Source of the DNA: Gammaproteobacteria bacterium
GTDB taxonomy: Bacteria > Pseudomonadota > Gammaproteobacteria > Pseudomonadales > Pseudohongiellaceae
NCBI GenBank assembly: GCA_002723195.1
Contig: PBNR01000044.1
Coordinates: 54,415 to 118,414 of the forward strand
Length of the DNA: 64,000 bases
Reading direction: 5' to 3'
The position numbers and the translations under genes were made by a program. Each line of letters begins with the position of its first letter. The first letter of the stretch is position 1. This document shows positions 1 to 13,047 of the stretch, one piece after another. The notes under the pieces were generated by a model. It searched no databases, was not told the DNA's origin, and was given only the letters and a program-made list of their open reading frames with translations.

Positions 1-38
1 ATCTGGGCGTTTCATTTCCGGTAGATATATAAAACTGG

Positions 39-872
39 TTGCGAGTAAAAAAGGTACAGTTTATGAAACAAGGCTCCTTGTATGAAGCTCTCTTTCAGGT
101 CGGCGCGTTAATACTAGTTGTGATAATTGTACACGGGACTTATGTAACAGTAATTCGCCCAAGCGCAGACTTAATACAAGAGCAACAAGCACTGATGCAG
201 GAACAGAATCCAGAAATTGTTCCTGAAAGGTCTGTGTTCATTATCCTTCGCAACTACGAGCAAGAGTTCTGTATCATATTTTTTCTTTGGGCTGTCACTA
301 TCATCGGGATGAAAACACAGCACACTATACGTCAACGCAGTCTGTTAGATAGAACATTGATTCAGCTGCAAGAAGGCATGAGTATTTTGCCGGAAGACTC
401 ACGCAATATTGCACGGCCTGTGCAGGCATTGTCAGAAAAAGAGCGCGAGTATTTGTTACCTAGAGCTCTACTTGCCGGTCTTCATCGATTCCAGAGCACT
501 CAAAACATTCAGGCGGTTTCGTCAATAATTAAAGATACCTGTGAAACAGAGGCTGATCGTATGGAAACTGAGCTTACTATTGTCAGATATATTGCTTGGG
601 CAATCCCATCAATTGGTTTCTTAGGCACTGTGAGGGGTATTGGCACTGCCTTGGGGCAAGCGTATCAGGCCGTTGCAGGAGATATAGCTGGGGTAACTCA
701 AAGTTTAGGGGTCGCATTTAACTCAACCTTCGTGGCCTTGGTGGTCAGTATCTTTCTTATGTTTCTGTTGCATCAGTTGCAATTACTGCAAGACCGATTA
801 GTACTGGACTGTCAGAACTATTGTGATGAGAGGCTAATTAACCACCTGCAAGTCCCAGACAGGGGTGAGTAA
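39..872 (+). CDS. MotA/TolQ/ExbB-family proton-channel membrane protein (stator A-subunit-like). The ATG at 63 is a more likely start than the TTG at 39.
   Basis: The C-terminal half carries the family signature AIPSIGFLGTVRGIG ... LGVAFNSTFVALVVSIFLMF (cf. TolQ/ExbB GLLGTVxGI ... AL.TTa.GL.vAIP). It has four hydrophobic segments. It is the first gene of a tightly packed + strand cluster. Confidence 0.75.
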   Translation: MRVKKVQFMKQGSLYEALFQVGALILVVIIVHGTYVTVIRPSADLIQEQQALMQEQNPEIVPERSVFIILRNYEQEFCIIFFLWAVTIIGMKTQHTIRQRSLLDRTLIQLQEGMSILPEDSRNIARPVQALSEKEREYLLPRALLAGLHRFQSTQNIQAVSSIIKDTCETEADRMETELTIVRYIAWAIPSIGFLGTVRGIGTALGQAYQAVAGDIAGVTQSLGVAFNSTFVALVVSIFLMFLLHQLQLLQDRLVLDCQNYCDERLINHLQVPDRGE

Positions 873-891: not shown

Positions 892-2241
892 ATGTCGTTG
901 AAAGTAATAGAGCTAAACGACTGCGGTATAAAAGTCGGCGATGAAAGTGGCATCATTCTTGAAAGCCCAGGCTTTGCTTTGGTCACAGATGACAAAGTTG
1001 AGGTAGGGGAATCTGCTAAACAACATGCGCGTTTACAACCAACGAATAGTTTTAATAAATATTGGCACGAACTGAGTCTCGACCCGGTTTCTCAGAGCGA
1101 AAAAGTGCGCCATTATGCAGACTTGGCTTATGCACAATTACTGCAATTATCTGAGGCTGCAAAGATCGATAAAGACGTCATTTTTGCTGTTCCTGGCAAT
1201 TTTACCCGCCAACAACTTTCTATTCTATTAGGGCTTGTGCAGCAATGCCCTTTCGAAACCATTGGCCTTGTCGACGCTGCACTTGCTGCTTCAGTGTCCT
1301 TAGCCCAGTCTGAACACATTGTTTACGCAGACATTCAATTGCATCAGGTAGTAGTAAACAAGCTTACCGTTATTGGAGATAACGTTGAAACAGGTGGAGT
1401 CGTTCAGATTCCTGGAGTTGGTTACCAGAACTTTATCAACTTGATGATGCAGATTGCCACGGATATGTTTATCCAGCAGTGCCGATTCAATCCACAGCAT
1501 AATGCGGAGTCAGAACAACAACTTTACAATGAGATACCCTCTTGGTTGTTGCAGGGAGAAACGGAAAAGACCCTACAGTTGGAGCTTAAGAATGCAGGTG
1601 CGACTTATGTCGCTAAATTGCCTAGGGAAGCCCTCATTTCGGCGCTTAACGACTACTACACAAAAATTGTAGAACAGGTTCAAGCGATGGCTTCCACCAC
1701 TAATACACAACTTTTGTTAAGTGCCAATTTGGCTGAATTACCGGGGTTCCAATCTGCGGTTAAAAAGTTTAGTAATTTCTCCGCTGTTGAAGAAGATTTA
1801 GTTAACTATGCTTGTCACCAATACCGCGACCTTATCACGTGTTCAGGCCGAGCAATTCATCTAGTTCATAAGTTGCCTGCCGAGTCACAACATGGCGAAG
1901 CCTATAGCGATAATAAATGGGAATCTCAATCCGAGCACCCAACTCACGCGCTCTTTTCCGGTCGTGCGATTGCAATAGATAGGATAGAGATCAAAAACAA
2001 AACAAAATTGAATGGCAGTTTCCAAGTAGGAGCGGCCATTGTAATGAATATAGAGAGCCTTCCCGAATCACTCGGTCGTATAGAGAAGCGCGGGGAACAA
2101 GTGTATCTCAATACTGACGAACTAGAAGTATTTTTGAATGATTATCCAGTAACTGGTGAGCGTTTGCTGAGTCTTGGTGACCGTATTTGTTTTATCAAAA
2201 GTGGCGAGGAAATTAGCCTAATTCAGGTTAGTGATGGCTAG
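892..2241 (+). CDS. Cytoplasmic Hsp70/actin-fold-like protein with degenerate nucleotide-binding motifs and a C-terminal FHA-like region
   Basis: ESPGFALVTDDKVEVGESAKQHARLQPTNSF and IFAVPGNFTRQQLSILLGLVQQCPFETIGLVDAALAASVS line up with DnaK TPS.VAF...VG.PAKRQAVTNP.NT and [40 protein letters not shown]. The phosphate-binding motifs (DLGTT, DLGGGT) are replaced by ELNDCG and ADIQLHQ. The tail GRIEKRGEQVYLNTDELEVFLNDYPVTGERLLSLGDRICF has FHA-like spacing. There is no signal peptide or TM segment. Confidence 0.5.
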   Translation: MSLKVIELNDCGIKVGDESGIILESPGFALVTDDKVEVGESAKQHARLQPTNSFNKYWHELSLDPVSQSEKVRHYADLAYAQLLQLSEAAKIDKDVIFAVPGNFTRQQLSILLGLVQQCPFETIGLVDAALAASVSLAQSEHIVYADIQLHQVVVNKLTVIGDNVETGGVVQIPGVGYQNFINLMMQIATDMFIQQCRFNPQHNAESEQQLYNEIPSWLLQGETEKTLQLELKNAGATYVAKLPREALISALNDYYTKIVEQVQAMASTTNTQLLLSANLAELPGFQSAVKKFSNFSAVEEDLVNYACHQYRDLITCSGRAIHLVHKLPAESQHGEAYSDNKWESQSEHPTHALFSGRAIAIDRIEIKNKTKLNGSFQVGAAIVMNIESLPESLGRIEKRGEQVYLNTDELEVFLNDYPVTGERLLSLGDRICFIKSGEEISLIQVSDG

Positions 2242-3337
2242 TAATAGTAAATCTAACAGACGCAAAGTAAATCCGCTCAGCCTGGCCTTCCTTGATGTCA
2301 TGTTTTGTGGCTTTGGTGCTGTGATTTTGATTTTCCTGATACTCGATCATGCAAGCACGATGTCACCAGAAGAATCTAACCCAGAATTACTAGCAGAAAT
2401 CAATCTGCTAAATGAAGAAGTCAAACAAGGTGAGTTGGGCCTTGTTCGCATTCGTAATATTTTATCCGATGTGGATTTTGAAGTCGTTACAGCGGAAGGA
2501 TTAGCCCGTCAGATCATGGAACAAATCGATACCTTTCTGCAAGAACTTGCTGCCCTTGAAAACAGCAGCATGGCAACAGAGGAAGACTTAGCTAAGCTGC
2601 GTTCGGACATTGAAGCGCTGGAACAGGAGGTATTGCGCTTACAGGCCACCGCTTTTGAACAAGAAGGCAATAGTGTGCGTCAATTTCTCGGTGATGGCAA
2701 TCGGCAATACTTGTCAGGTTTATTCTTAGGTGGGCAACGCATTTTAGTTTTGGTGGACAGTTCTGCGAGCATGCTGGATAGCACCATCGTAAATATTATC
2801 CGCACCCGTAACATGAGCGATGAACTTAAGCGGAATGCACCTAAGTGGAAGCGTGTGGTTAGCACGGTCGATTGGATAAGCACGCAGCTGCCTGTTACCA
2901 GTCAATATCAAATTTGGAGTTTTAACACGGAAACTAATTCGGTTATTGAGGGCACTAAAGGGTTATGGTTAGAGGTTGCCGATAGGGACCAGCTCAATCA
3001 GGCGATCGAAAATGTAAATACCATTGTGCCTGCCGATGGCACTAATATGGAACAGGTTTTCAGGGCCGCCGCGAACATGTCACCACGACCCGACAATATT
3101 TTCTTAATCACGGACGGATTACCCACTTTGGACGACAGGGGTTCCTCAGATCCCTTGGTTACTCCAAAGGAGCGAGTAGCGTTATTCGAAGAGGCAGTAG
3201 AGGAACTGCCGCCGTCAATACCTGTCAATATAGTATTGATGCCGCTGGAAGGAGATCCCGCAGCTGCCGCAGTATTTTGGCAGTTAGCGCAGTACACTAG
3301 AGGATCATTTTTAACGCCTTCAAAAGATTGGCCCTAA
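2231..3337 (+). CDS. Membrane-anchored protein: ExbD/TolR-like Asp-containing TM segment, coiled coil, then a periplasmic von Willebrand factor A domain
   Basis: The basic N-terminus (NRRK) is followed by LAFLDVMFCGFGAVILIFLIL (cf. ExbD/TolR P.iDV...LLiFF). Residues ~50-145 are heptad-rich (EINLLNEEVKQGELGL...LRSDIEALEQEVLRLQ). The MIDAS motif is LVLVDSSASM (D at 2756-2758), followed by ADGTNM and IFLITDG. The start (GTG 2231 or ATG 2234) overlaps the stop of the preceding gene. Confidence 0.7.
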   Translation: MMASNSKSNRRKVNPLSLAFLDVMFCGFGAVILIFLILDHASTMSPEESNPELLAEINLLNEEVKQGELGLVRIRNILSDVDFEVVTAEGLARQIMEQIDTFLQELAALENSSMATEEDLAKLRSDIEALEQEVLRLQATAFEQEGNSVRQFLGDGNRQYLSGLFLGGQRILVLVDSSASMLDSTIVNIIRTRNMSDELKRNAPKWKRVVSTVDWISTQLPVTSQYQIWSFNTETNSVIEGTKGLWLEVADRDQLNQAIENVNTIVPADGTNMEQVFRAAANMSPRPDNIFLITDGLPTLDDRGSSDPLVTPKERVALFEEAVEELPPSIPVNIVLMPLEGDPAAAAVFWQLAQYTRGSFLTPSKDWP

Positions 3338-3423
3338 AATAGTATTGTAGGCGCAAGAAGCTAGATGTATCGATATACATATAAATTGGCCTTAAAAAAG
3401 AAGAGAGACATTTTTAAGTACTA

Positions 3424-4434
3424 ATGGCGAAACGTAAAAACAGAGAAACTGATTCTTTTTCCGTATCCTTCTTGGATGTAGCTTCTTGTGGATTTGGAGC
3501 AATGATAATTTTGTTGATGATTACCAAATCTTCCGCGCCAACAACATTAGAGGTTGTTCAAGATATAGTGCCGGAAGGCGCAGTTGCGCAGCTGCAGGAA
3601 CAGCTTTTCGAGATACGCGGCGAAACAACTGTTCTGAATCGTGATTTGAACGCGAAGCATGAACAACTTTCTGCGCTGAATGAGCGGATTGCCCGCTTGC
3701 GTCGAGACCTAGAAGACATTGAAGGGCGGTATGCCACAAGCAAAGACTTGTCGGACGAAACGACAGATGAGTATGGACGCCTAGCATTAGCGCAGCAATC
3801 CTTGACAGACGAGATGCAGCGCTTGCTGGCCAATACTCGAGCACCTGATAACAACGCTATCGGTGGAGTGCCTGTAGATAGCGAATACATTATTTTCGTT
3901 ATCGATACATCGGGCAGCATGTTTCAGAATCCTAGTTGGGACAAAATGCTGGGCGTAATTGAAGATACATTGGACGTCTACCCTGAAGTTAAGGGAATAC
4001 AAGTAATGAATGACATGGGCGATTATATGTTTGATTCCTATAGAAGCGAATGGATTCCTGACACACCAGGGCGACGTAATCAGATTATTTCCACGCTTCG
4101 AACTTGGAACCCCTACAGTAATAGCAGTCCGGTGGAGGGTGTAACGCGGGCTATCGATACTTTTTACGAGCGAGATAAAAAGATTAGTATTTATGTGCTT
4201 GGGGACGATTTTCAGCCGGGCGGATCCATCCGAAATGTTTTACAAACCATAGATCGGATCAATATCGAGGATGAAAATGGAGACAGATTGGTTAGAATCC
4301 ATGGAATAGGCTTTCCTACTATTTTCGCGGGCCCTAGACGCTTTCAACAGAGTGTTTATCGATATTCGACCTTAATGCGGGAGATGACACAGCGAAATGG
4401 TGGTACATTTGTGGGCTTGAATGATTATCAGTGA
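3424..4434 (+). CDS. Paralogous membrane-anchored ExbD/TolR-like TM + coiled coil + vWA domain protein
   Basis: It has the same architecture as 2231-3337. The N-terminus is basic (KRKNR). The TM segment is VSFLDVASCGFGAMIILLMI, with its Asp at 3475-3477. A coiled-coil stretch follows (LQEQLFEIRGE...LNERIARLRRDLEDIE). The MIDAS motif is IFVIDTSGSM, with D at 3904-3906. Confidence 0.7.
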   Translation: MAKRKNRETDSFSVSFLDVASCGFGAMIILLMITKSSAPTTLEVVQDIVPEGAVAQLQEQLFEIRGETTVLNRDLNAKHEQLSALNERIARLRRDLEDIEGRYATSKDLSDETTDEYGRLALAQQSLTDEMQRLLANTRAPDNNAIGGVPVDSEYIIFVIDTSGSMFQNPSWDKMLGVIEDTLDVYPEVKGIQVMNDMGDYMFDSYRSEWIPDTPGRRNQIISTLRTWNPYSNSSPVEGVTRAIDTFYERDKKISIYVLGDDFQPGGSIRNVLQTIDRINIEDENGDRLVRIHGIGFPTIFAGPRRFQQSVYRYSTLMREMTQRNGGTFVGLNDYQ

Positions 4435-4483
4435 TTTGCATTTAATACCAGCGGACGGCAAATGGGATTTGAAGGAAATAGTT

Positions 4484-5110
4484 ATGAACTTATTTAATAC
4501 CTCAATTAGCGCCATTCGTACCAAATTGTCAATTCTGTATTTAACAGGGTTACTTGTAGCTTGTGGAGCGAGTAATGTAGTAATTCAGGGGAATTTCCCA
4601 ACGCCAAATATTAATAAAATGCCATTGTCTGTCGCCGTTTATTACGACGATGCGCTGCGCGGATTCTCTTACATGGAATACAGTGAGACTGGCCGCGAAG
4701 AAATTAATATTGAAAGCGGTGAGTCCCATATTCGGTTATTTGATGCTGTACTGCCAGCTATGTTTGATCGAGTGGTAAACATAAATAGCCTCGAAGATGC
4801 CGTTAGTCAGAATGTAGATGCCGTTTTTGCTCCGGCTATCGAAGAATTCCAACTTGCGTTGCCAGCTAAAACTAAGCTGGAACTTTACGAGGTCTGGATA
4901 AAATACAATATGCGGTTGCTTAATTCCGAAGGTGACTATATAGCGGACTGGGTACTAACGTCCTATGGTAAGACGCCTCCAGAAACATTCCGCTCAGTAG
5001 AAGATGGTATTAACGAGGCGGCTATCGTTGCACTAAGAGATCTTGCTTCCAGCTTTTCATTAAGCTTTGCGCAGGTCCCAGAAGTACGTGATTGGTTAAA
5101 TAAACCCTAG
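4484..5110 (+). CDS. Lipoprotein of unknown function (start moved to the ATG at 4484; the track ORF starts at 4421)
   Basis: MNLFNTSISAIRTKLSILYLTGLLVACG is a signal peptide with an L-V-A-C lipobox. AAGGA lies 9 nt upstream of ATG 4484. I recognise no family motif. Confidence 0.55.
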   Translation: MNLFNTSISAIRTKLSILYLTGLLVACGASNVVIQGNFPTPNINKMPLSVAVYYDDALRGFSYMEYSETGREEINIESGESHIRLFDAVLPAMFDRVVNINSLEDAVSQNVDAVFAPAIEEFQLALPAKTKLELYEVWIKYNMRLLNSEGDYIADWVLTSYGKTPPETFRSVEDGINEAAIVALRDLASSFSLSFAQVPEVRDWLNKP

Positions 5111-5136: not shown

Positions 5137-5811
5137 ATGATAAAGAGTGAAATAGCAAGTGTGATAAACATAGGCATCATATCATTAGTGATGGTTTTTT
5201 TTGCTTCCTGTACTAGCACCACTGTTGATGAATTTCGTCAAGGTGAGACAGGCATTGAGAGTGGCGAGTCTATCGTAATCCTTGGTCGTCGACAGGCCAG
5301 TGATTATGAAACACGATCAGAGTTTGTTGAGTGTGTTGGTGATCGGATGCGGCGTGGACAGAACGCGATCAACGTTGTGCCAGAAAAAGAATTTGTCGAT
5401 GCAATGTTCCCTTGGTTTGAACCGCGCACTGCACCCTTGCGCCCTAGTGGCCTAGAACAACTTATGGCAGAGGACGCTGTCGCCAGCAAGATAAACGACT
5501 TCGGTATTCGCTACATAATTTGGATTGATGGCTTTACTGAAACCAGTGGTCGAGCGGGATCGATTTCCTGTGCTGTTGGACCAGCTGGTGGTGGGTGTTT
5601 CGGGTTTGGCACATGGGAAGACGACGCTAGTTTTGATGCATTTGTATGGGACATCGATTCATTAAGAAACGTTGGGACAATAAACGCAGACGCTACCGGA
5701 CAATCCTATCTGCCCGCACTCGTGGTACCTATTCCTCTCTTGGCGCGAGTTGAGGAAAACGCATGCAGCCGTTTAGCGACTCAGCTCAAAGATTTCGTTA
5801 AGGGCAGCTAG
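5137..5811 (+). CDS. Lipoprotein of unknown function
   Basis: The N-terminal signal IISLVMVFFASCTS has a lipobox Cys. It lies 26 nt after the previous gene and 4 nt before the next. I recognise no family motif. Confidence 0.55.
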   Translation: MIKSEIASVINIGIISLVMVFFASCTSTTVDEFRQGETGIESGESIVILGRRQASDYETRSEFVECVGDRMRRGQNAINVVPEKEFVDAMFPWFEPRTAPLRPSGLEQLMAEDAVASKINDFGIRYIIWIDGFTETSGRAGSISCAVGPAGGGCFGFGTWEDDASFDAFVWDIDSLRNVGTINADATGQSYLPALVVPIPLLARVEENACSRLATQLKDFVKGS

Positions 5812-5815
5812 CACT

Positions 5816-7333
5816 ATGAATAAGCGGAGCGCCTCAAATATCTTCAATTTACGGATTATAGATGTGAATTCCAAAGTGATTTTAGTACCCATTACTGCCT
5901 TGATGGCTTCAATACTTTTTTCGTCTTGTGCCGTTAATCCAGCTACAGGTGGCGCTAATTTGGTTTTAATGACAGAAAATCGCGAAAAAGAAATCGGACT
6001 CGAAGAACATGAAAAAGTAATGTCTTCCATGCCCTTTTCCGAAGATGAGGAACTGGTTGCTTATGTACGTGAGATTGGCCAGAAGATGGCAGATGTAAGT
6101 CACCGGCCAGACCTTGAATATAAGTTTTATGTGATCGACAGCCCAGAAATAAACGCCTTTGCTTTGCCGGCTGGCTATGTTTATGTGAATAGAGGGTTGC
6201 TTACTTACATGAATTCAGAAGCCGAACTTGCCGCTGTTCTGGCTCATGAGATTGGTCACATTACCGCACGTCATGCCGTGCAGCAACAAGCAAGAGGTGC
6301 GTTAGCGCGAGGCGCTGCGGTAGCAGGTGGTCTTGTGGCCGGCATTGCCACGGGCAGTGGTTACGCGGCATCACAAATAAGTGAGGTTGCATCAATCTGG
6401 GCGCAAACAGGCCTGTCCGGATTTGGTCGTGAGCATGAATTGGAAGCGGACAGTCTTGCCGCAGAATACTTAGTTAGGGCTGGTTATGACCCTGCGGCCG
6501 TGATCGATGTGATTACAGCGTTAAAGAATAATGAGGATTTTAATCGTCGCGTATCCGGCGGTGGTGGCACTTACCATGGATTGTTTGCCACTCATCCGCG
6601 AAATGATCGTCGCTTGCAAGAGGCAATTGCACAAGTAGGTCAGTTAAATCAGAATGAAGTTGCCGCTTTAAACAACGACATATTTAGACAAAAGCTGGAT
6701 GGGTTGATTATTGGGCAAAGCAATGCCTCCCAAAGAACCGATCAGCGCAATCGCTATTATCAGGATTTGCTCGGTTACACCTTAGTATTTCCAGACGATT
6801 GGTCTATCGATGAAACTACTACTACGGTAACTGCAGTTTCCCCTAATGTGGGTAAGTTGCACATCGAAGCGCGGCGCCTACAAGGCAATATAGAGCCACG
6901 AGTATTTATAAGAGACAATATGGGCGTGGAAAACCTCCAAAAATCTGAAGCTTTATCTCAGTATCGTTTAATAGGACATACAGGAACTGCGGTTAACCCT
7001 GATACCGGTAACATAGAACGAATCGCTACTTTGTATTTGGGTCCTCGTGCATTGACTTTTCGGGGTGAAATCATTGACAGCGCTAGTTTAAACGAAATCG
7101 ACGATATGCTCCTAGCATCCATTCGTTCCTTTCGAGCAATTCAGCAAGGTGAAGTAGTAGCAGGAAATGAGATGAAGATTAAATATGTACAAGCTAGCGA
7201 ATACTTCGATTTTTCAGTTATCGCCCAGCAAAGCAAAATAGCCAACTTCCCGGAAGAAACTTTGCGTCTAATTAATGGCTACTATCCGACCGGCAACCCA
7301 GATGCAGGCGAATGGATAAAGTTAGTTGAGTAG
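5816..7333 (+). CDS. M48-family zinc metallopeptidase, predicted lipoprotein, with a ~200-aa C-terminal domain of unknown function
   Basis: The HExxH motif LAHEIGHITARH is at 6245-6259, with a downstream EHELEAD third-ligand region typical of M48 (LoiP/BepA/HtpX-like). The signal peptide is ALMASILFSSC, with a lipobox Cys. Confidence 0.8.
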   Translation: MNKRSASNIFNLRIIDVNSKVILVPITALMASILFSSCAVNPATGGANLVLMTENREKEIGLEEHEKVMSSMPFSEDEELVAYVREIGQKMADVSHRPDLEYKFYVIDSPEINAFALPAGYVYVNRGLLTYMNSEAELAAVLAHEIGHITARHAVQQQARGALARGAAVAGGLVAGIATGSGYAASQISEVASIWAQTGLSGFGREHELEADSLAAEYLVRAGYDPAAVIDVITALKNNEDFNRRVSGGGGTYHGLFATHPRNDRRLQEAIAQVGQLNQNEVAALNNDIFRQKLDGLIIGQSNASQRTDQRNRYYQDLLGYTLVFPDDWSIDETTTTVTAVSPNVGKLHIEARRLQGNIEPRVFIRDNMGVENLQKSEALSQYRLIGHTGTAVNPDTGNIERIATLYLGPRALTFRGEIIDSASLNEIDDMLLASIRSFRAIQQGEVVAGNEMKIKYVQASEYFDFSVIAQQSKIANFPEETLRLINGYYPTGNPDAGEWIKLVE

Positions 7334-7544: not shown

Positions 7545-8588
7545 ATGGTTGAGCCAGCTACAAGAAATATTTTGGTAATCGGGCCTTCTTGGGTCGGGGA
7601 CATGGTGATGTCTCAAGTCCTTTATAAGAGTCTTAAGGAACAGCACCGCAATAGCCACATAACCGTATTAGCTACAAACTGGGCTCGGCCAATTCTAGAA
7701 CGTATGCCAGAAGTAGATGACACTATGGATTTGGAAATTGGCCATGGTGAACTGCGCCTTTCAGATCGTCGAAGTTTAGGCAAGTCTCTCCAAGAGCTCC
7801 AGTTTACTCAAGCTATAGTACTGCCGCTTTCTTTTAAATCTGCGTTGATCCCATTCCATGCGAATATTGGAATTCGCACGGGTTGGCGAGGTGAGTGGCG
7901 TAATTTATTGCTAAACGATTGCCGCGCGCCGAACGATGAGCTATTTCCTCTAATGGTGCAACGATTTGCAGCATTAGCGTATGCAGAGTGCGCAGAACCA
8001 CCTAAAAAAATCCCCAAGCCCAGATTAGTCACTCATCCAAAGAAAGTGCAGGATTGCCTTAGTAAATTTAATTTGCAAACTGAATCTAGAATTCTTGCTA
8101 TTTGTCCTGGAGCGGAATTTGGAGAAGCAAAACAGTGGCCTCCGGAGTACTATGCCGAATTGAGTAATGCCATGCTGGCCCAAGGTTGGCAGATTTGGAT
8201 ATTTGGTTCGATGAATGATGAGCTAGTTACTGAAGCTATTTTGGCAGATATAGGGCAGAGCCATGCGGAGAAATGTCATAATCTGGTTGGCAGGACGAGC
8301 ATGGCAGAGGCCATAGATCTGATGTCTGTCGCCAGTATTGCCGTATCTAACGATTCCGGGTTAATGCATGTCGCTGCAGCCCTAGATATCCCGGTGGTAG
8401 CAATTTATGGATCAACATCACCGGACTTTACGCCACCATTTGCGGAAAGGGTAAAATTGCTGACTACTGACATAGAATGCCGGCCTTGTTTTAAGAGGAA
8501 GTGTCCGTATGGCCACTTGCGTTGTCTAACAGATCTTAAAGCAATAGAGGCCATAGAGTCAGTGCATTCATTATTAGTTCATAAATGA
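7545..8588 (+). CDS. waaF: ADP-heptose:LPS heptosyltransferase II
   Basis: NILVIGPSWVGDMVMSQ matches E. coli WaaF KILVIGPSWVGDMMMSQ. The length fits GT9. It is followed by waaC-waaG-waaP. Confidence 0.9.
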   Translation: MVEPATRNILVIGPSWVGDMVMSQVLYKSLKEQHRNSHITVLATNWARPILERMPEVDDTMDLEIGHGELRLSDRRSLGKSLQELQFTQAIVLPLSFKSALIPFHANIGIRTGWRGEWRNLLLNDCRAPNDELFPLMVQRFAALAYAECAEPPKKIPKPRLVTHPKKVQDCLSKFNLQTESRILAICPGAEFGEAKQWPPEYYAELSNAMLAQGWQIWIFGSMNDELVTEAILADIGQSHAEKCHNLVGRTSMAEAIDLMSVASIAVSNDSGLMHVAAALDIPVVAIYGSTSPDFTPPFAERVKLLTTDIECRPCFKRKCPYGHLRCLTDLKAIEAIESVHSLLVHK

Positions 8589-8605
8589 GATAGGGATAGT
8601 GATTA

Positions 8606-9664
8606 TTGCGAATATTGATAGTTAAGGTTTCTTCGCTGGGCGATATTATTCACACATTGCCAGCAGTAACTGACGCCCATAAAGCCCATGCCGATTTAAC
8701 TTTTGACTGGGTAGTAGAGGAAAACTTTGCAGAAGTCCCTTCATGGCACCCTGCGGTCGACAAAGTAATTCCGGTAGCAATTCGGCGCTGGCGTAGGAAC
8801 TTACTTCGGACTTATTTAACTGATGAATTTCGATCTTTTAAGCGCACGTTGCAGGGTGTCCATTACGATCTAGTCATTGATGCACAAGGGCTGATAAAGA
8901 GCGGTTTCATCAGTCGTTTATCCCGGGGCCTGACAATTGGATTGAGCAACAGGACTATTCGAGAGCCTTTGGCTACGCTCTTTTATAACAAAGTTTATTC
9001 TGTTCCTTGGACGGAGCACGCCGTCAATCGAGTCAGGCAGCTATTCTCTAGAGCGTTAAAGTATCGCTACGATAAAGAGGTTATTGATTACGGGATAGAT
9101 GTTGCGAAATTAAAAGAAAACAGAGAGGAAAATACGGCCGAGCAAATAGTTTTTCTTCATGGAACGACTTGGGGGACCAAACATTGGCCTGCGAAGTATT
9201 GGCGTCATCTAGCACAAATTGCTTCTGAATCAGGCTATGAGGTATTGCTACCTTGGGGGAATAATGAAGAGAGAAAAAGAGCTGAATTCATTGCAAAAAA
9301 TAATAACTTGGTCACTATATTAGATAAGCAGTCACTTACGGGGCTTGCTCAGCACATTAATAACTCTAAAGGCGTGATTGCTGTCGATACTGGGTTGGGG
9401 CACTTGGCGGCGGCTCTCAGCAAGCCAGCCGTTTCTCTCTATGGGCCAACTAATCCAGGATTGTCCGGAACTTTCGGCGAAAATCAACTCCACCTGTATT
9501 CAAAATTTAGTTGCGCCCCATGCGTAAAGAAAGTTTGTAGTTATAAAGGGCCTGTTATAACTGACAATTTGGAAAATCAACCTTTTGCAGTAATACCGCC
9601 TTGTTTCTCTGTCAATAAGCCTGAACAGGTATGGCAAAGATTTAAGAACCTTCTTAAGGAATAA
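8606..9664 (+). CDS. waaC: ADP-heptose:LPS heptosyltransferase I
   Basis: The TTG start gives MRILIVKVSSLGDIIHTLPAVTDA (cf. E. coli WaaC MRVLIVKTSSMGDVLHTLPALTDA). Confidence 0.9.
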   Translation: MRILIVKVSSLGDIIHTLPAVTDAHKAHADLTFDWVVEENFAEVPSWHPAVDKVIPVAIRRWRRNLLRTYLTDEFRSFKRTLQGVHYDLVIDAQGLIKSGFISRLSRGLTIGLSNRTIREPLATLFYNKVYSVPWTEHAVNRVRQLFSRALKYRYDKEVIDYGIDVAKLKENREENTAEQIVFLHGTTWGTKHWPAKYWRHLAQIASESGYEVLLPWGNNEERKRAEFIAKNNNLVTILDKQSLTGLAQHINNSKGVIAVDTGLGHLAAALSKPAVSLYGPTNPGLSGTFGENQLHLYSKFSCAPCVKKVCSYKGPVITDNLENQPFAVIPPCFSVNKPEQVWQRFKNLLKE

Positions 9665-9672
9665 GCAAACCC

Positions 9673-10797
9673 GTGAAGTTAAGTTTTTTGATTTATTACT
9701 ACTTTCCTTATGGGGGGCAACAGAGAGACTTTCTTCGAATTGCAAAAGAGTGCATCAAGCGCGGCAATGAAGTTGATGTTTACGCTATTCGCTGGCAGGG
9801 TGAAGTCCCAGAAGGCCTCAACCTCATCCCAGTTCCGGTAAAAGCGATAACACGAACTAGGCTTTACATAAAGTACACCGCATGGATGGAGAGCACTATA
9901 AGAAAATCAGCAGGATCCACTGTGGTTGGTTTCAATAAAATGCCTTTGTTAGATATCTATTTTGCTGCTGACCCCTGCTTTGCAGAGAAAGCCCATACAC
10001 AGCGACGCTTTTACTACAAACTTACTCCGCGCTACCGCCACTTCAGCAAATATGAGAATGCTGTTTTTGGTAAAGGTTCAAATACTCATTCACTGATACT
10101 TTCGCCTCAGCAACGACTAGCTTTTGAAAAGTACTATCCTGATTGTTGTGAGCGATTACACGAACAGCCTCCAGGTGTTTCTTTGGATCGTAAAGTAGAA
10201 AGCCGCGATGTGTTAGCTCGTCAGCAGTTTCGCGATGAATATGGGATAAATACGGATGAATTATTGCTGCTACAAATAGGCTCAGGATTCAAAATAAAAG
10301 GAGTAGATAGAACTTTGCATGCTATAGCTTCTTTGCCAGACGAGCTATTATCTAGAACGAAATTTATGTTGGTAGGGCAGGACAAAAGTACCGGAGTGGT
10401 TCGCCTCGCTAAGCGTCTCGGTATTGCAGATAGATTACTTATTTTTGGCGGGCGTGACGACATTCCTCAGTTTCTCGCGGGAGCGGACTTATTAATCCAC
10501 CCGGCTTATGTAGAGAGCGCAGGTTACGTCTTATTAGAGGCGACAATAGCCGGGTTGCCAGTACTAACCACGGCTACATGCGGGTACTCATTCCACGTGG
10601 AAAGGGCACGATCTGGACAAGTTTGTCCTAGCCCGTTTAAGCAATCTGATTTAAATCAGAACCTAGCGTATATGCTGAAATCACTGCAGGATGAAGCGTG
10701 GTCGCGGAATGGGTTGAAATATGGCAAGAACGAAGATCTCTATTCCATGCCTGAAGTAGCAGCCGAACTGATAGAAAAATTGGCCCTTAATAACTGA
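9673..10797 (+). CDS. waaG: LPS core glucosyltransferase I (GT4)
   Basis: MKLSFLIYYYFPYGGQQRDFLRIA matches E. coli WaaG MIVAFCLYKYFPFGGLQRDFMRIA. The C-terminal GT4 region is HPAYVESAGYVLLEA. Confidence 0.85.
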   Translation: MKLSFLIYYYFPYGGQQRDFLRIAKECIKRGNEVDVYAIRWQGEVPEGLNLIPVPVKAITRTRLYIKYTAWMESTIRKSAGSTVVGFNKMPLLDIYFAADPCFAEKAHTQRRFYYKLTPRYRHFSKYENAVFGKGSNTHSLILSPQQRLAFEKYYPDCCERLHEQPPGVSLDRKVESRDVLARQQFRDEYGINTDELLLLQIGSGFKIKGVDRTLHAIASLPDELLSRTKFMLVGQDKSTGVVRLAKRLGIADRLLIFGGRDDIPQFLAGADLLIHPAYVESAGYVLLEATIAGLPVLTTATCGYSFHVERARSGQVCPSPFKQSDLNQNLAYMLKSLQDEAWSRNGLKYGKNEDLYSMPEVAAELIEKLALNN

Positions 10798-11588
10798 TGA
10801 CAATGCTTTATATAAATAAAGAGATTGCGGATACTTTTGAAGGGCAAGATCCTTATAATTTCCTAGAGGCTGTTGAATGTGAAATATACCGGGATGTTAA
10901 AGCGCGAAAAACATTTAGGTTTAAATTAAACGCAAAAGGTTATTTCGCAAAGCTGCATTCCGGCGTCGGTTGGTTAGAAATTTTTAAAAATCTATTTACT
11001 TTTCGTTTTCCTATAGTTGGCGCGCGTAACGAATGGGAGGCAATTCACCGAGTAAAAAATCTAAATATCGCCACAATGAATATTGTCGCCTACGGAGAGT
11101 GGGGCTGGAATCCAGCACGTAAAAAATCATTCATTATTACTGAAGAATTAATAAATACGATAAGCTTGGAAGATTACTGTAAAAAATGGAAAAACTCGCC
11201 GCCAAATCCTGCGCAAAAGCGCAACTTAATAAAGGAAGTTGCGAAGATTGCTGGCAGATTGCATCGCAACGGAATATGCCATCGCGACTTTTACCTCTGC
11301 CATCTTTTGTTGCATACAGAGGAAATCTCATTTCCAAAAATATCGGTTATTGACTTACATCGCGCGATAATTCGGAAAGATCTTGCGGCGCGTTGGGTTA
11401 TAAAAGACTTAGCTGGGCTTTACTACTCGGCGAAAAACATCGGGCTTACCCAGGGGGACTTATTGCGATTCGTCCGCCACTACGACGGTGGGGTTTTACG
11501 CTCTTCCCTGATCAAAAAAGATTCTTTTTGGCGGCAAGTAAATTTTAGGGCGAATAAAATGTATAAAAAACTGGGACCTTCAGTCTAG
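10797..11588 (+). CDS. waaP: LPS core heptose(I) kinase
   Basis: It is collinear with E. coli WaaP, including SFIITEEL..TISLEDYC, the catalytic loop HRDFYLCHLLL (E. coli HRDCYICHFLL) and ISVIDLHRA. Its ATG overlaps the waaG stop. Confidence 0.9.
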   Translation: MTMLYINKEIADTFEGQDPYNFLEAVECEIYRDVKARKTFRFKLNAKGYFAKLHSGVGWLEIFKNLFTFRFPIVGARNEWEAIHRVKNLNIATMNIVAYGEWGWNPARKKSFIITEELINTISLEDYCKKWKNSPPNPAQKRNLIKEVAKIAGRLHRNGICHRDFYLCHLLLHTEEISFPKISVIDLHRAIIRKDLAARWVIKDLAGLYYSAKNIGLTQGDLLRFVRHYDGGVLRSSLIKKDSFWRQVNFRANKMYKKLGPSV

Positions 11589-11592
11589 CTCA

Positions 11593-13047
11593 ATGATTAA
11601 TTTCACATGCGAACAATTAATCTCTATGGGACGGAATATTCCAACTCCTTTTATTCTTAATCTAGATAAAATGGGGCAGAAAGAGGAAATAAGTATTGAA
11701 ATTATTTTACGTCTTATTCCTGGAAAAAGGCTCGTCGGAATATCTAGTTGGCGGAACCAAAAGGTTATTTTAAAACTTTTCTTCAAGCCGGGCCACTCCC
11801 AGCGCAATATGTTATCTGATATTCGTGGCATAACCTTACTGCAAAAGCGTCACATACCTACCCCCGAAATACTGCTCCAGGCCTCTACAACGGATAAAAA
11901 GGGCGCGGCGTTACTCATAGAGTATCTAGAACAAGGCATAAGTCTGAAATCGTTAGTCGAAAAAGCAGACGAAGAAGAGCAGGTAACTTCTCATATTAAA
12001 GTCGCGACGACTTTAATTGCAAAATGCCACCAGCAAGGCCTTTGGCAAAATGATATCCATCTGGATAACTTCATGATGGTAGAGGAAACAGCCTATATTT
12101 TGGATGGTGGCGATATCCGCGAAGTGAGCACTGACGTACATGCAGAGGCGTCACTACAAAATCTTGCATTGTTCTTGGCCCAATTTACTGTAGGTAAGGA
12201 TAGATATATTCCGACTATAATTAGTATTTATCAATCAGTTCGAGAAAATTTTCCAGAAATAGAGTTAGAAGATTTTATTTTGCGAGTAAAAAGACAGCGT
12301 AATGGCAGATTGGGCCACCTAGAAAAAAAATTATTTCGCTCCACTACGGTAAACCGTGCCATTAGAAACCAAGAAAAATTTGTTGTTTACAATCGCCAAA
12401 TACATTCAAATGAAGTGGAAAAGTTCATTGAAAACCCTGGTATAAAAATTGATTGGGACGAGATTATAAAAAATGGGAATGCTTCTACGGTATACCGGAT
12501 AGCTTTGGGGGGGGATAGGTACGTGCTAAAACGTTATAATTTGAAATCGTTTTGGCATGGTTTTAAGTATTTATTTAGGCGAAGTCGAGCTCACCACAGC
12601 TGGAGAAATGCATGGGTATTGAATATGCTTGGGATCGATACTCCTCATCCATACCTGATGTACGAAGAAAGAATGGTCTGGTTTTTGCGAAAAAGGGCCT
12701 ATTTTCTTTGTGAAGACTTAAATGAAAAAAATTTACTGGATAAATTGGAAGTCGATTTCAAAGAGCTACCTATCGAAAAGATCGTACGGGCATTCAGAGC
12801 TCTGTTTGAGATTATGATAGAGTACAAAATTAGTCATGGCGATATGAAAGCTAGCAATTTTGTCTTTCATGATGACCGATTGTATGTGTTGGATCTTGAT
12901 TCGATGAAACGGCATAAAAATAGAGATAAATTCACTAAAGCGATGAAAAAAGACTTAGATAGATTTTTAAGAAATTGGGAAGGTGGTTGTTTAGAAAGTA
13001 GATTTAAACAACTAGTCGCTGACATAAATCTTATTGAACGAATATAA
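11593..13047 (+). CDS. Two-domain LPS-kinase-family protein (Kdo/WaaP/InaA-like)
   Basis: The N-terminal half has the catalytic-loop-like motif NDIHLDNFMM. The C-terminal half has ISHGDMKASNFVF and LYVLDLDS. It sits directly after waaP, as the extra core kinases do in Pseudomonas-type clusters. Confidence 0.7.
   Translation: MINFTCEQLISMGRNIPTPFILNLDKMGQKEEISIEIILRLIPGKRLVGISSWRNQKVILKLFFKPGHSQRNMLSDIRGITLLQKRHIPTPEILLQASTTDKKGAALLIEYLEQGISLKSLVEKADEEEQVTSHIKVATTLIAKCHQQGLWQNDIHLDNFMMVEETAYILDGGDIREVSTDVHAEASLQNLALFLAQFTVGKDRYIPTIISIYQSVRENFPEIELEDFILRVKRQRNGRLGHLEKKLFRSTTVNRAIRNQEKFVVYNRQIHSNEVEKFIENPGIKIDWDEIIKNGNASTVYRIALGGDRYVLKRYNLKSFWHGFKYLFRRSRAHHSWRNAWVLNMLGIDTPHPYLMYEERMVWFLRKRAYFLCEDLNEKNLLDKLEVDFKELPIEKIVRAFRALFEIMIEYKISHGDMKASNFVFHDDRLYVLDLDSMKRHKNRDKFTKAMKKDLDRFLRNWEGGCLESRFKQLVADINLIERI

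Follow-up and report, generated by a model that had tools for sequence, protein, structure and literature searches.

At the left end of a 64,000-nucleotide stretch of DNA from a gammaproteobacterium of the Pseudohongiellaceae (the window; assembly GCA_002723195.1, contig PBNR01000044.1, positions 54,415 to 118,414 of the forward strand), there is a tightly packed plus-strand operon whose genes overlap or are closely spaced. Its open reading frames (ORFs), ORF1 to ORF7, are listed with their features in Table 1. The present analysis centers on ORF3 and ORF4, which encode a pair of paralogs, termed a and b. Each consists of a basic stub, an Asp-bearing membrane helix (the transpore helix), a coiled-coil stalk and a vWA domain (short for von Willebrand factor A) with a metal ion-dependent adhesion site (MIDAS). 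Given the channel subunit of MotA/TolQ/ExbB type encoded by ORF1 in the same operon, we propose that this pair is probably the inner core of an ion-driven motor.

Table 1. Features of the operon, with positions counted in the window
Feature	Position	Strand	Evidence
ORF1, MotA/TolQ/ExbB-like channel subunit	39..872	+	Pfam MotA_ExbB 1.2e-16; TIGR tolQ 3e-7
ORF2, predicted cytoplasmic protein between ORF1 and ORF3; stop overlaps ORF3 start	892..2241	+	AlphaFold2, Foldseek
ORF3, a paralog: basic stub, Asp-bearing transpore helix, coiled-coil stalk, MIDAS vWA	2234..3337	+	Pfam, AlphaFold2, Foldseek
ORF3 transpore helix, residues 14-42	2273..2359	+	AlphaFold2 helix; Asp codon 2294-2296
ORF3 coiled-coil stalk, residues 50-143	2381..2662	+	AlphaFold2 helices, heptad z, profile matches
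ORF3 vWA domain, residues 169-360	2738..3313	+	Pfam VWA_2 and VWA_3, AlphaFold2, Foldseek
ORF4, b paralog, same architecture as ORF3	3424..4434	+	hhalign against the ORF3 family
ORF4 transpore helix, about residues 12-35	3457..3528	+	Ortholog conservation; Asp codon 3475-3477 (D18)
ORF4 coiled-coil stalk, about residues 40-140	3541..3843	+	Heptad z; Pfam/NCBIfam coiled-coil-type matches; aligns with ORF3 stalk
ORF4 vWA domain, about residues 155-333	3886..4422	+	hhalign column correspondence
ORF5, predicted lipoprotein, lipobox LVAC, Cys48 counted from 4421	4421..5110	+	Cys-Gly conserved after hydrophobic leader
ORF6, predicted lipoprotein, lipobox FASC, Cys25	5137..5811	+	Lipobox, synteny
ORF7, M48 metallopeptidase related to BepA, lipobox FSSC, Cys38	5816..7333	+	Pfam Peptidase_M48 1.2e-39

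A first-pass annotation of this DNA, made from the letters alone, had singled out these two proteins, and its coordinates, Asp codons, DxSxS positions, basic stubs and helix motif were all confirmed in the sequence. Each protein has a single hydrophobic helix that opens with F-L-D-V and follows the stub NRRK (ORF3) or KRKNR (ORF4). The Asp is encoded by an in-frame GAT codon in both, and the MIDAS motif begins at 2756 in ORF3 (DSSAS) and at 3904 in ORF4 (DTSGS). The numbering of the Asp residues stood for D18 of ORF4 and had to be shifted by one for ORF3. Because the 100%-identical database protein comprises 367 residues, ORF3 almost certainly starts at the ATG at 2234, which overlaps the stop codon of ORF2, rather than at the alternative GTG at 2231; its membrane Asp is therefore D21, not D22. 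The approximately 100 residues after the helix, described earlier as heptad-rich, are heptad-periodic far above shuffled controls (z = 5.2 for ORF3 and 5.8 for ORF4).

Structure prediction of ORF3 with AlphaFold2, based on 61 sequences, yielded the membrane helix, two long helices (residues 50-110 and 116-143) and a vWA domain with a predicted local distance difference test score (pLDDT) above 90. The vWA assignment is in agreement with Pfam, in which VWA_2 reached 30.9 bits against a cut-off of 27 and VWA_3 was also over threshold. Foldseek comparison of the modeled domain gave matches to the vWA domains of ITIH1, TEM8/ANTXR, alpha2delta and CLCA1, so that its fold is nearest to the ligand-binding MIDAS vWA domains. 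A search of the PDB with the ORF3 family profile retrieved mostly coiled-coil proteins (SMC, tropomyosin and EnvC), in addition to weak matches of the vWA region to 8s05 and ITIH4. The MIDAS of ORF3 comprises residues D175, S177, S179, T270 and D294. The vWA domain of ORF4 falls under the Pfam threshold (E 0.072); the residues at its MIDAS positions, D161, S163, S165, S234 and D261, are all invariant in orthologs.

Judged by their sequences, ORF3 and ORF4 are true paralogs. They match each other in BLASTP at 1e-8, and hhalign aligns ORF4 with the ORF3 family at a probability of 99.7 and an E of 1.5e-25 (columns 1-298 against 2-268). This alignment runs through the helix and the stalk and over most of the vWA domain, and it pairs up the MIDAS positions (DxSxS, Thr/Ser and Asp). 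Both the paralogy and the presence of a MIDAS vWA domain in each protein, as initially annotated, are thus borne out, the latter by Pfam and Foldseek for ORF3 and by hhalign plus the invariant residues for ORF4. Four to five basic residues precede the helix, and net acidic sequence follows it, in both paralogs and all homologs. Given this basic stub before and acidic sequence after the helix, both proteins are predicted to adopt the N-in, C-out topology proposed earlier, which would place the vWA domains in the periplasm. Neither membrane helix contains a His, and the SHLS motif of TolA and TonB is absent.

To define the family, we searched exhaustively over 1.84 billion cluster representatives (clusters at 50% identity), which gave 1248 clusters at E <= 1e-3 and 294 at E <= 1e-30. 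The pair goes far beyond what chance would give. Conservation was read from 96 diverse full-length ORF3-type sequences with 33-51% identity to ORF3. The membrane Asp is kept in all N-terminally complete members of this set, residues F19, D21, C25, G26, G28, A29 and L32 are at least 90% conserved, and the MIDAS residues are 85-100% conserved. The helix motif of the ORF3 family reads LSFLD-x3-CGFGAV. Similarly, F12, F16, L17, D18, V19, C22, G23, F24, G25 and A26 of ORF4 are invariant in 27 orthologs, and ORF4 is the most conserved gene of the operon, with 59-93% identity across loci. We further collected 80 metagenomic loci via a profile of a distant clade; all of their a-type (81/81) and b-type (73/73) genes whose N-terminus is intact retain the Asp. 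The conservation of this residue among orthologs, on which the initial proposal had been staked, holds in every intact homolog examined.

The two genes also stay together. A b gene adjoins the a gene in all 70 loci with enough downstream sequence, and the b-type genes form one exclusive clade in a neighbor-joining tree; the duplication is therefore older than the split of the sampled clades. In the loci sampled, the pairing of a and b is obligate and ancient. Within a 26-residue helix window, the paralogs share 69% identity in the metagenomic loci and 45% in the Pseudohongiellaceae-type loci, compared with about 20% over the whole protein, and this transpore segment is the part best conserved between them. 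Such a high identity fits two helices sharing one pseudo-symmetric pore. Despite the low overall identity, the distance from the membrane Asp to the MIDAS Asp is confined to 153-157 residues in a and 141-144 residues in b (111 pairs). By sequence length, the stalk behaves like a ruler, nearly fixed in each paralog. Covariation of stalk lengths, considered as a test of the heterodimer, was dropped, as the lengths are near invariant and leave nothing to correlate (r = 0.18); this constancy is informative in its own right. The spacer between ORF3 and ORF4 (3338-3423) is 86 nucleotides long; in relatives the two genes are 14-108 nucleotides apart or overlap.

The channel subunit ORF1 likely starts at the ATG at 63, yielding a protein of 269 residues. 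Its motifs GTVRG (T197) and NST (T230) are shared by 79 orthologs, and in the alignment they correspond to T148 and T181 of Escherichia coli ExbB; a sequence search of the PDB with ORF1 gave no match. Pore threonines of this type face the plug Asp in known motors, and in MotB, ExbD and TolR, the Asp at the cytoplasmic end of the single membrane helix is the proton acceptor. Of the 47 loci with enough flank, 42 carry a MotA-like gene immediately upstream of the pair. The description of the pair as standing next to one channel gene is right in that ORF1 belongs to the same operon, and inexact in that ORF2 intervenes. Pfam and family searches of the operon in the window and of the upstream genes of its relatives detected no ExbD, TolR, MotB or OmpA-type gene; no MoxR or DUF58 gene was found there either.

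ORF2 has no membrane helix and matches no Pfam or NCBIfam family. In its AlphaFold2 model (mean pLDDT 87), residues 1-330 display the fold of the Hsp70 nucleotide-binding domain, with Foldseek matches to such domains in the PDB at an E of about 1e-16 and a TM of about 0.70. The C-terminal beta-sandwich (about residues 350-449) is FHA-like in the model, and the distant ORF2 homolog of locus L139 matches Pfam FHA at 4.6e-14. The phosphate-binding motifs are degenerate (NDCGIKVGD and DIQLHQ), and we refer to ORF2 as a pseudo-Hsp70 plus FHA protein. Of all genes in the operon it evolves fastest; 38 of 47 loci have a homolog, and the other nine have none. ORF2 is translationally coupled to ORF3.

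The left edge of the window (1-39) truncates a conserved operon of about ten genes, the order of which we read from 80 relatives (63-90% identity) and two loci at about 50% identity. It begins with a TPR protein, a protein with four to five PEGA repeats plus an FGE-sulfatase domain, and a small secreted acidic protein; then follow the MotA-like channel, ORF2, a, b, two lipoproteins and an M48 peptidase. The 80 genomes listed by the scan of the genome collection are close relatives, mostly labeled Pseudohongiella or Pseudohongiellaceae, and the gene order is the same in 80/80 of them. The family ranges over Pseudohongiellaceae, Halieaceae and other Pseudomonadales, plus Opitutae. In the distant, Verrucomicrobia-type clade, the core order of MotA, ORF2, a and b is retained with TPR and M48 genes nearby; no PEGA plus FGE-sulfatase gene was detected near the core genes of this clade. 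The base composition of the locus is not atypical.

Downstream of the pair, ORF5 likely starts at M22 (4484). It follows the pair in 80/83 related loci and in several distant loci. Neither ORF5 nor ORF6 matches a Pfam family. ORF7 matches the NCBIfam model of BepA at 2e-38, under the cut-off of that model, and an M48 gene is linked to the cluster in the distant clade as well. The lipoboxes of ORF5 to ORF7 are without an Asp at position +2. Beyond them, a lipopolysaccharide (LPS) core biosynthesis cluster lies directly downstream on the plus strand (7545-13047), comprising two family-9 heptosyltransferases, a group-1 glycosyltransferase and two Kdo/WaaP-family kinases. The G+C content falls to 0.36 at 12-14 kb of the window. 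The adjacency of the LPS cluster to the operon is not kept in the loci at about 50% identity.

The three genes upstream of ORF1 were seen in relatives, for example at 1-3795 of L001 and 1-4881 of L081. The PEGA plus FGE-sulfatase protein is predicted to be anchored in the inner membrane. In distant loci (L135, L145, L153, L158 and others), its cytoplasmic N-terminus of 130-180 residues has an FHA-like look, with weak hidden Markov model (HMM) matches at 1e-5 to 1e-3, computed on a tiny database, and no Pfam match. These N-termini, considered as a possible substitute where ORF2 is missing, also occur in loci that keep ORF2. We considered this protein as a TonB/TolA-like rider on the pentamer and rejected the idea, because the His of its membrane helix is conserved only in Pseudohongiellaceae and absent in distant orthologs. 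The small acidic protein (about 90 residues; 3523-3795 in L001) is secreted and very acidic, and carries the conserved C-terminal motif RFxPxExISQDxGVSFP. It is a candidate for the MIDAS ligand or for a beta-strand docking peptide.

Building on the observed domain architecture, paralogy and synteny, the conservation of the Asp, MIDAS and threonine residues, and the obligate pairing, we infer that ORF3 and ORF4 probably form the heterodimeric (1+1) inner core of a 5:2 motor of the MotA/TolQ/ExbB type, with ORF1 as the pentamer. This assignment is also supported by the tight packing of the operon, the near-constant stalk length and the likeness of the vWA fold to ligand-binding MIDAS domains, and no other plug gene of the ExbD, TolR, MotB or OmpA type is present in the operon. 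The heterodimeric plug put forward in the first-pass annotation is also supported by synteny, conservation and a published AlphaFold 3 model of a homologous system (PMC12204202). It is less unusual than was then supposed: AglQ/AglS are one example, and paired heterologous tolR-like genes have been noted elsewhere (PMC12204202).

In the putative model, the N-in helices of ORF3 and ORF4 would stand side by side in the pore of the ORF1 pentamer, yielding a 5:1:1 assembly. D21 and D18 would take up and release protons against the threonine ring formed by T197 and T230 of ORF1, and the cycles of protonation would drive a relative rotation of pentamer and dimer. A parallel coiled coil, which might extend up to about 14-15 nm if continuous, would hold the vWA heads in the periplasm. 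There, the MIDAS sites would clasp an acidic residue of a partner, such that proton flow is converted to torque or pull on that partner. The partner is likely encoded in the operon; candidates are ORF5, ORF6, the M48 lipoprotein ORF7 or, encoded upstream in relatives, the small acidic secreted protein or the PEGA plus FGE-sulfatase protein. On the cytoplasmic side, ORF2 probably serves as a regulator or scaffold of the motor.

A bolder version of this model is possible, though doubtful as a whole. The pair would be the moving part of an unrecognised envelope machine of about ten genes, a 5:1:1 proton motor whose integrin-like MIDAS 'hands' on a coiled-coil ruler of fixed length act on the outer-membrane lipoproteins of the operon, the M48 protease or the inner-membrane PEGA plus FGE-sulfatase protein, gated from the cytoplasm by the pseudo-Hsp70 plus FHA protein. 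If so, it would represent a proteobacterial and verrucomicrobial counterpart of the GldKLMN-type or Tol-type machines, and its output might be outer-membrane remodelling, surface-protein handling or motility.

Several observations weigh against the assignment of the pair as a motor core or limit the ExbD/TolR label. An HMM of the helix (35 positions) gives about 0 bits on E. coli ExbD and TolR, compared with 45 bits on ORF4. What the helix shares with ExbD and TolR is confined to F-[LI]-D-V-M and to where the Asp sits with respect to the basic stub. ORF3 and ORF4 show no ExbD/TolR match (PF02472) in Pfam or NCBIfam at E <= 1 and possess no ExbD periplasmic domain; the profile search of the PDB with the ORF3 family retrieved no ExbD or TolR chain. 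An OmpA-like peptidoglycan-binding domain is also absent, the C-terminal domain being the vWA domain. Similarity of the helix to E. coli ExbD/TolR is thus not statistically detectable. The earlier label of ExbD/TolR-like anchors is retained for the position of the helix, the context and the pentapeptide with its Asp only, and given up for the periplasmic domain. By analogy, ORF3 and ORF4 would resemble the ExbD, TolR and MotB plugs in their proposed working, yet lie outside those families.

The motor assignment is further weakened by the five of 47 loci that have no adjoining MotA-like gene and an intact helix motif. In these loci (L129, L133, L134, L138 and L139), a PEGA plus FGE-sulfatase gene is followed by ORF2 and then the vWA pair, and a MotA-like gene is missing from the interval; the channel may be encoded outside the flanks retrieved. 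In the distant Verrucomicrobia-type clade (L086-L122), the a paralog carries R or E at the first MIDAS Asp, and IDTSGSM is retained in 9/9 b genes inspected. From these sequences, MIDAS binding by both heads is not universal, and the loss in the a paralog suggests a functional asymmetry between the two heads. Lastly, other systems, ArnA/ArnB among them (Foldseek match 8s05), have FHA domains paired with vWA domains in the cytoplasm.

We weighed other explanations against the same evidence. In one of them, unlikely in our estimate yet built on the same 5:2 complex, the pair acts as a MotB-like static anchor. The heads would fix the dimer to an outer-membrane or periplasmic partner while the ORF1 pentamer rotates around it and drives a component at the cytoplasmic or membrane face, for example ORF2 or the TPR and PEGA plus FGE-sulfatase proteins by way of their membrane helices. 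In favor of this, the proteins are built like MotB, with a linker joining the plug helix to an anchoring domain; the gene between channel and plug, ORF2, specifies a conserved cytoplasmic partner; and single-pass inner-membrane proteins are co-encoded upstream in relatives. However, ORF2 is absent in nine of 47 loci, and the SHLS motif of the TonB/TolA type is not conserved in the helix of the PEGA plus FGE-sulfatase protein outside one family; nothing in the data separates a static anchor from a transducer. That the pair has no motor function at all appears improbable. ORF3 and ORF4 would then be membrane-anchored vWA adhesins or co-chaperones like BatA/BatB, the Asp-Gly helix would serve heterodimerisation only, and ORF1 would be an unrelated or regulatory channel. 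Bat-type operons, which encode membrane-anchored vWA proteins with TPR partners, provide a precedent, and both the insignificant similarity of the helix to ExbD/TolR and the five loci lacking an adjoining MotA gene are in line with it. Nevertheless, a charged Asp that sits equally deep in the two helices and is invariant over very wide divergence is hardly explained by packing alone. The tight synteny with MotA in an operon devoid of ExbD, TolR and MotB genes, the conserved pore threonines and the absence from the operon of the MoxR AAA+ ATPase and DUF58 genes that accompany membrane vWA proteins in Bat operons also argue against a Bat-like role.

Two further explanations would change the setting altogether, and we give each of them very little weight. 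A Zorya-type anti-phage defence module with a MotAB-like sensor is suggested by a weak PADLOC match between ORF1 and ZorA (E 2e-4), which covers the MotA core, and by matches to LmuB and JetC that cover the coiled coil only. A Zorya system comprises a ZorA with a long cytoplasmic tail, a ZorB with a peptidoglycan-binding domain, and ZorC/D or ZorE effectors. Against it, the defence-system libraries gave no ZorB, ZorC or ZorD match and no nuclease effector gene, the gene order is constant in the 80 related genomes, the composition of the locus is not atypical, and the cluster encodes lipoproteins and a peptidase rather than defence effectors. The remaining possibility is an inverted topology with the vWA domains in the cytoplasm, where they and the ORF2 FHA domain would pair up as a phospho-dependent switch resembling ArnA/ArnB. 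FHA and vWA are a known interacting pair, the ArnAB complex 8s05 is in the Foldseek list, and ORF2 has homologs with an FHA domain. It is hardly compatible with the basic residues before and acidic residues after the helix in both paralogs and all homologs, with an Asp placed, like that of TolR, ExbD and MotB, close to the end of the helix that is basic, or with downstream partners that are predicted lipoproteins.

Ion-driven 5:2 motors are the power source of flagella, of TonB-dependent uptake, of envelope maintenance by Tol-Pal, and of gliding and type IX secretion. In the motor proposed here, the plug subunits themselves would bear a periplasmic stalk and a metal-dependent binding head. If so, proton flow would be coupled to a mechanical grip in the simplest way imaginable. 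Members of the family are widespread among marine Gammaproteobacteria and among Verrucomicrobia. The locus adds a parts list: a channel, a pseudo-Hsp70 plus FHA protein, two plugs, three lipoproteins (one of them M48), and, upstream in relatives, the TPR protein and the PEGA plus FGE-sulfatase protein. The core idea has been published before (PMC12204202); the present analysis is of value for extending it and making it testable, not as a discovery. With the longer parts list and the conservation figures, the motor hypothesis lends itself readily to tests.

The published account, 'Origin and Evolution of Bacterial Periplasmic Force Transducers' (Mol Biol Evol 2025; PMC12204202), describes a second vWA family tethered by a membrane helix (Fig. 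4c-d there), an Asp-bearing 'transpore helix' (TPH). This family co-occurs tightly with tolQ homologs in the absence of tolR or exbD, consists mostly of heterologous pairs, and is found in Proteobacteria and Verrucomicrobia. For the reference species, Idiomarina loihiensis, AlphaFold 3 models place the Asp pair inside the threonine ring. Judged on the described features, our locus is a further member of this TPH-vWA/tolQ-like kind described in silico. It shares the single helix without SHLS, the conserved Asp, the heterologous pair, the adjacent tolQ-like gene, the threonine ring, and the lack of tolR, exbD and motB; the taxonomic range agrees, and nothing in the locus contradicts membership. 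The text of that paper does not take up the intervening gene of Hsp70 fold plus FHA, the genes for the PEGA plus FGE-sulfatase protein, the lipoproteins and the M48 peptidase, the constancy of stalk length, or the loss of the MIDAS Asp from the a paralog in one clade. No second description turned up in literature searches on MotA, vWA and FHA together with Hsp70, or on FGE-sulfatase together with PEGA, and the literature found contains no experiment on a member of the family.

Compared with the TolQ-TolR-TolA and ExbB-ExbD-TonB 5:2 motors, the system shows a MotA_ExbB channel with two pore threonines and predicted N-in single-pass plugs with an Asp near the cytoplasmic end and the opening F/L-L/I-D-V-M/L, and its output would likewise be periplasmic. 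It differs in having no ExbD/TolR periplasmic domain, a putative heterodimer instead of a homodimer, and a CGFGA signature after the Asp. Moreover, the plug itself carries a long stalk and a binding head, and no separate transducer of the TolA/TonB type is evident. The MotA-MotB and PomA-PomB stators share a plug helix with an essential Asp, a linker, a periplasmic anchoring domain and an adjacently encoded channel; here, the corresponding parts are a coiled coil and a vWA domain, with neither an OmpA-like peptidoglycan-binding domain nor a flagellar context. The AglR-AglQ-AglS gliding motor of Myxococcus combines one TolQ-like channel with two different plug subunits. Like this motor and the paired tolR-like genes of PVC bacteria, which are also noted in PMC12204202, the present locus would have two different plugs for one channel. 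Those plugs are short, TolR-like and act via separate transducers, whereas here each is fused to its own stalk and head.

The putative machine is also reminiscent of GldL-GldM and PorL-PorM, which serve type IX secretion and gliding as ion-driven inner-membrane motors with a dimeric single-pass subunit spanning the periplasm. The FGE-sulfatase fold is that of GldJ, GldK and PorK, and a protein with this fold is co-encoded in relatives of our locus. The likeness is an analogy only, as no sequence relationship to GldM or GldN was found, and the FGE-sulfatase protein is predicted to be inner-membrane-anchored with PEGA repeats, in contrast to the outer-membrane lipoprotein ring of GldK/PorK. As for the heads, the MIDAS vWA domains of the integrin I-domain, ANTXR/TEM8, ITIH and alpha2delta type bind an acidic residue of their ligand. 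The vWA domains studied here share their fold and the complete DxSxS...T...D site at about 12-18% identity; they are bacterial, presumably periplasmic, and fused to what is probably the plug of a motor.

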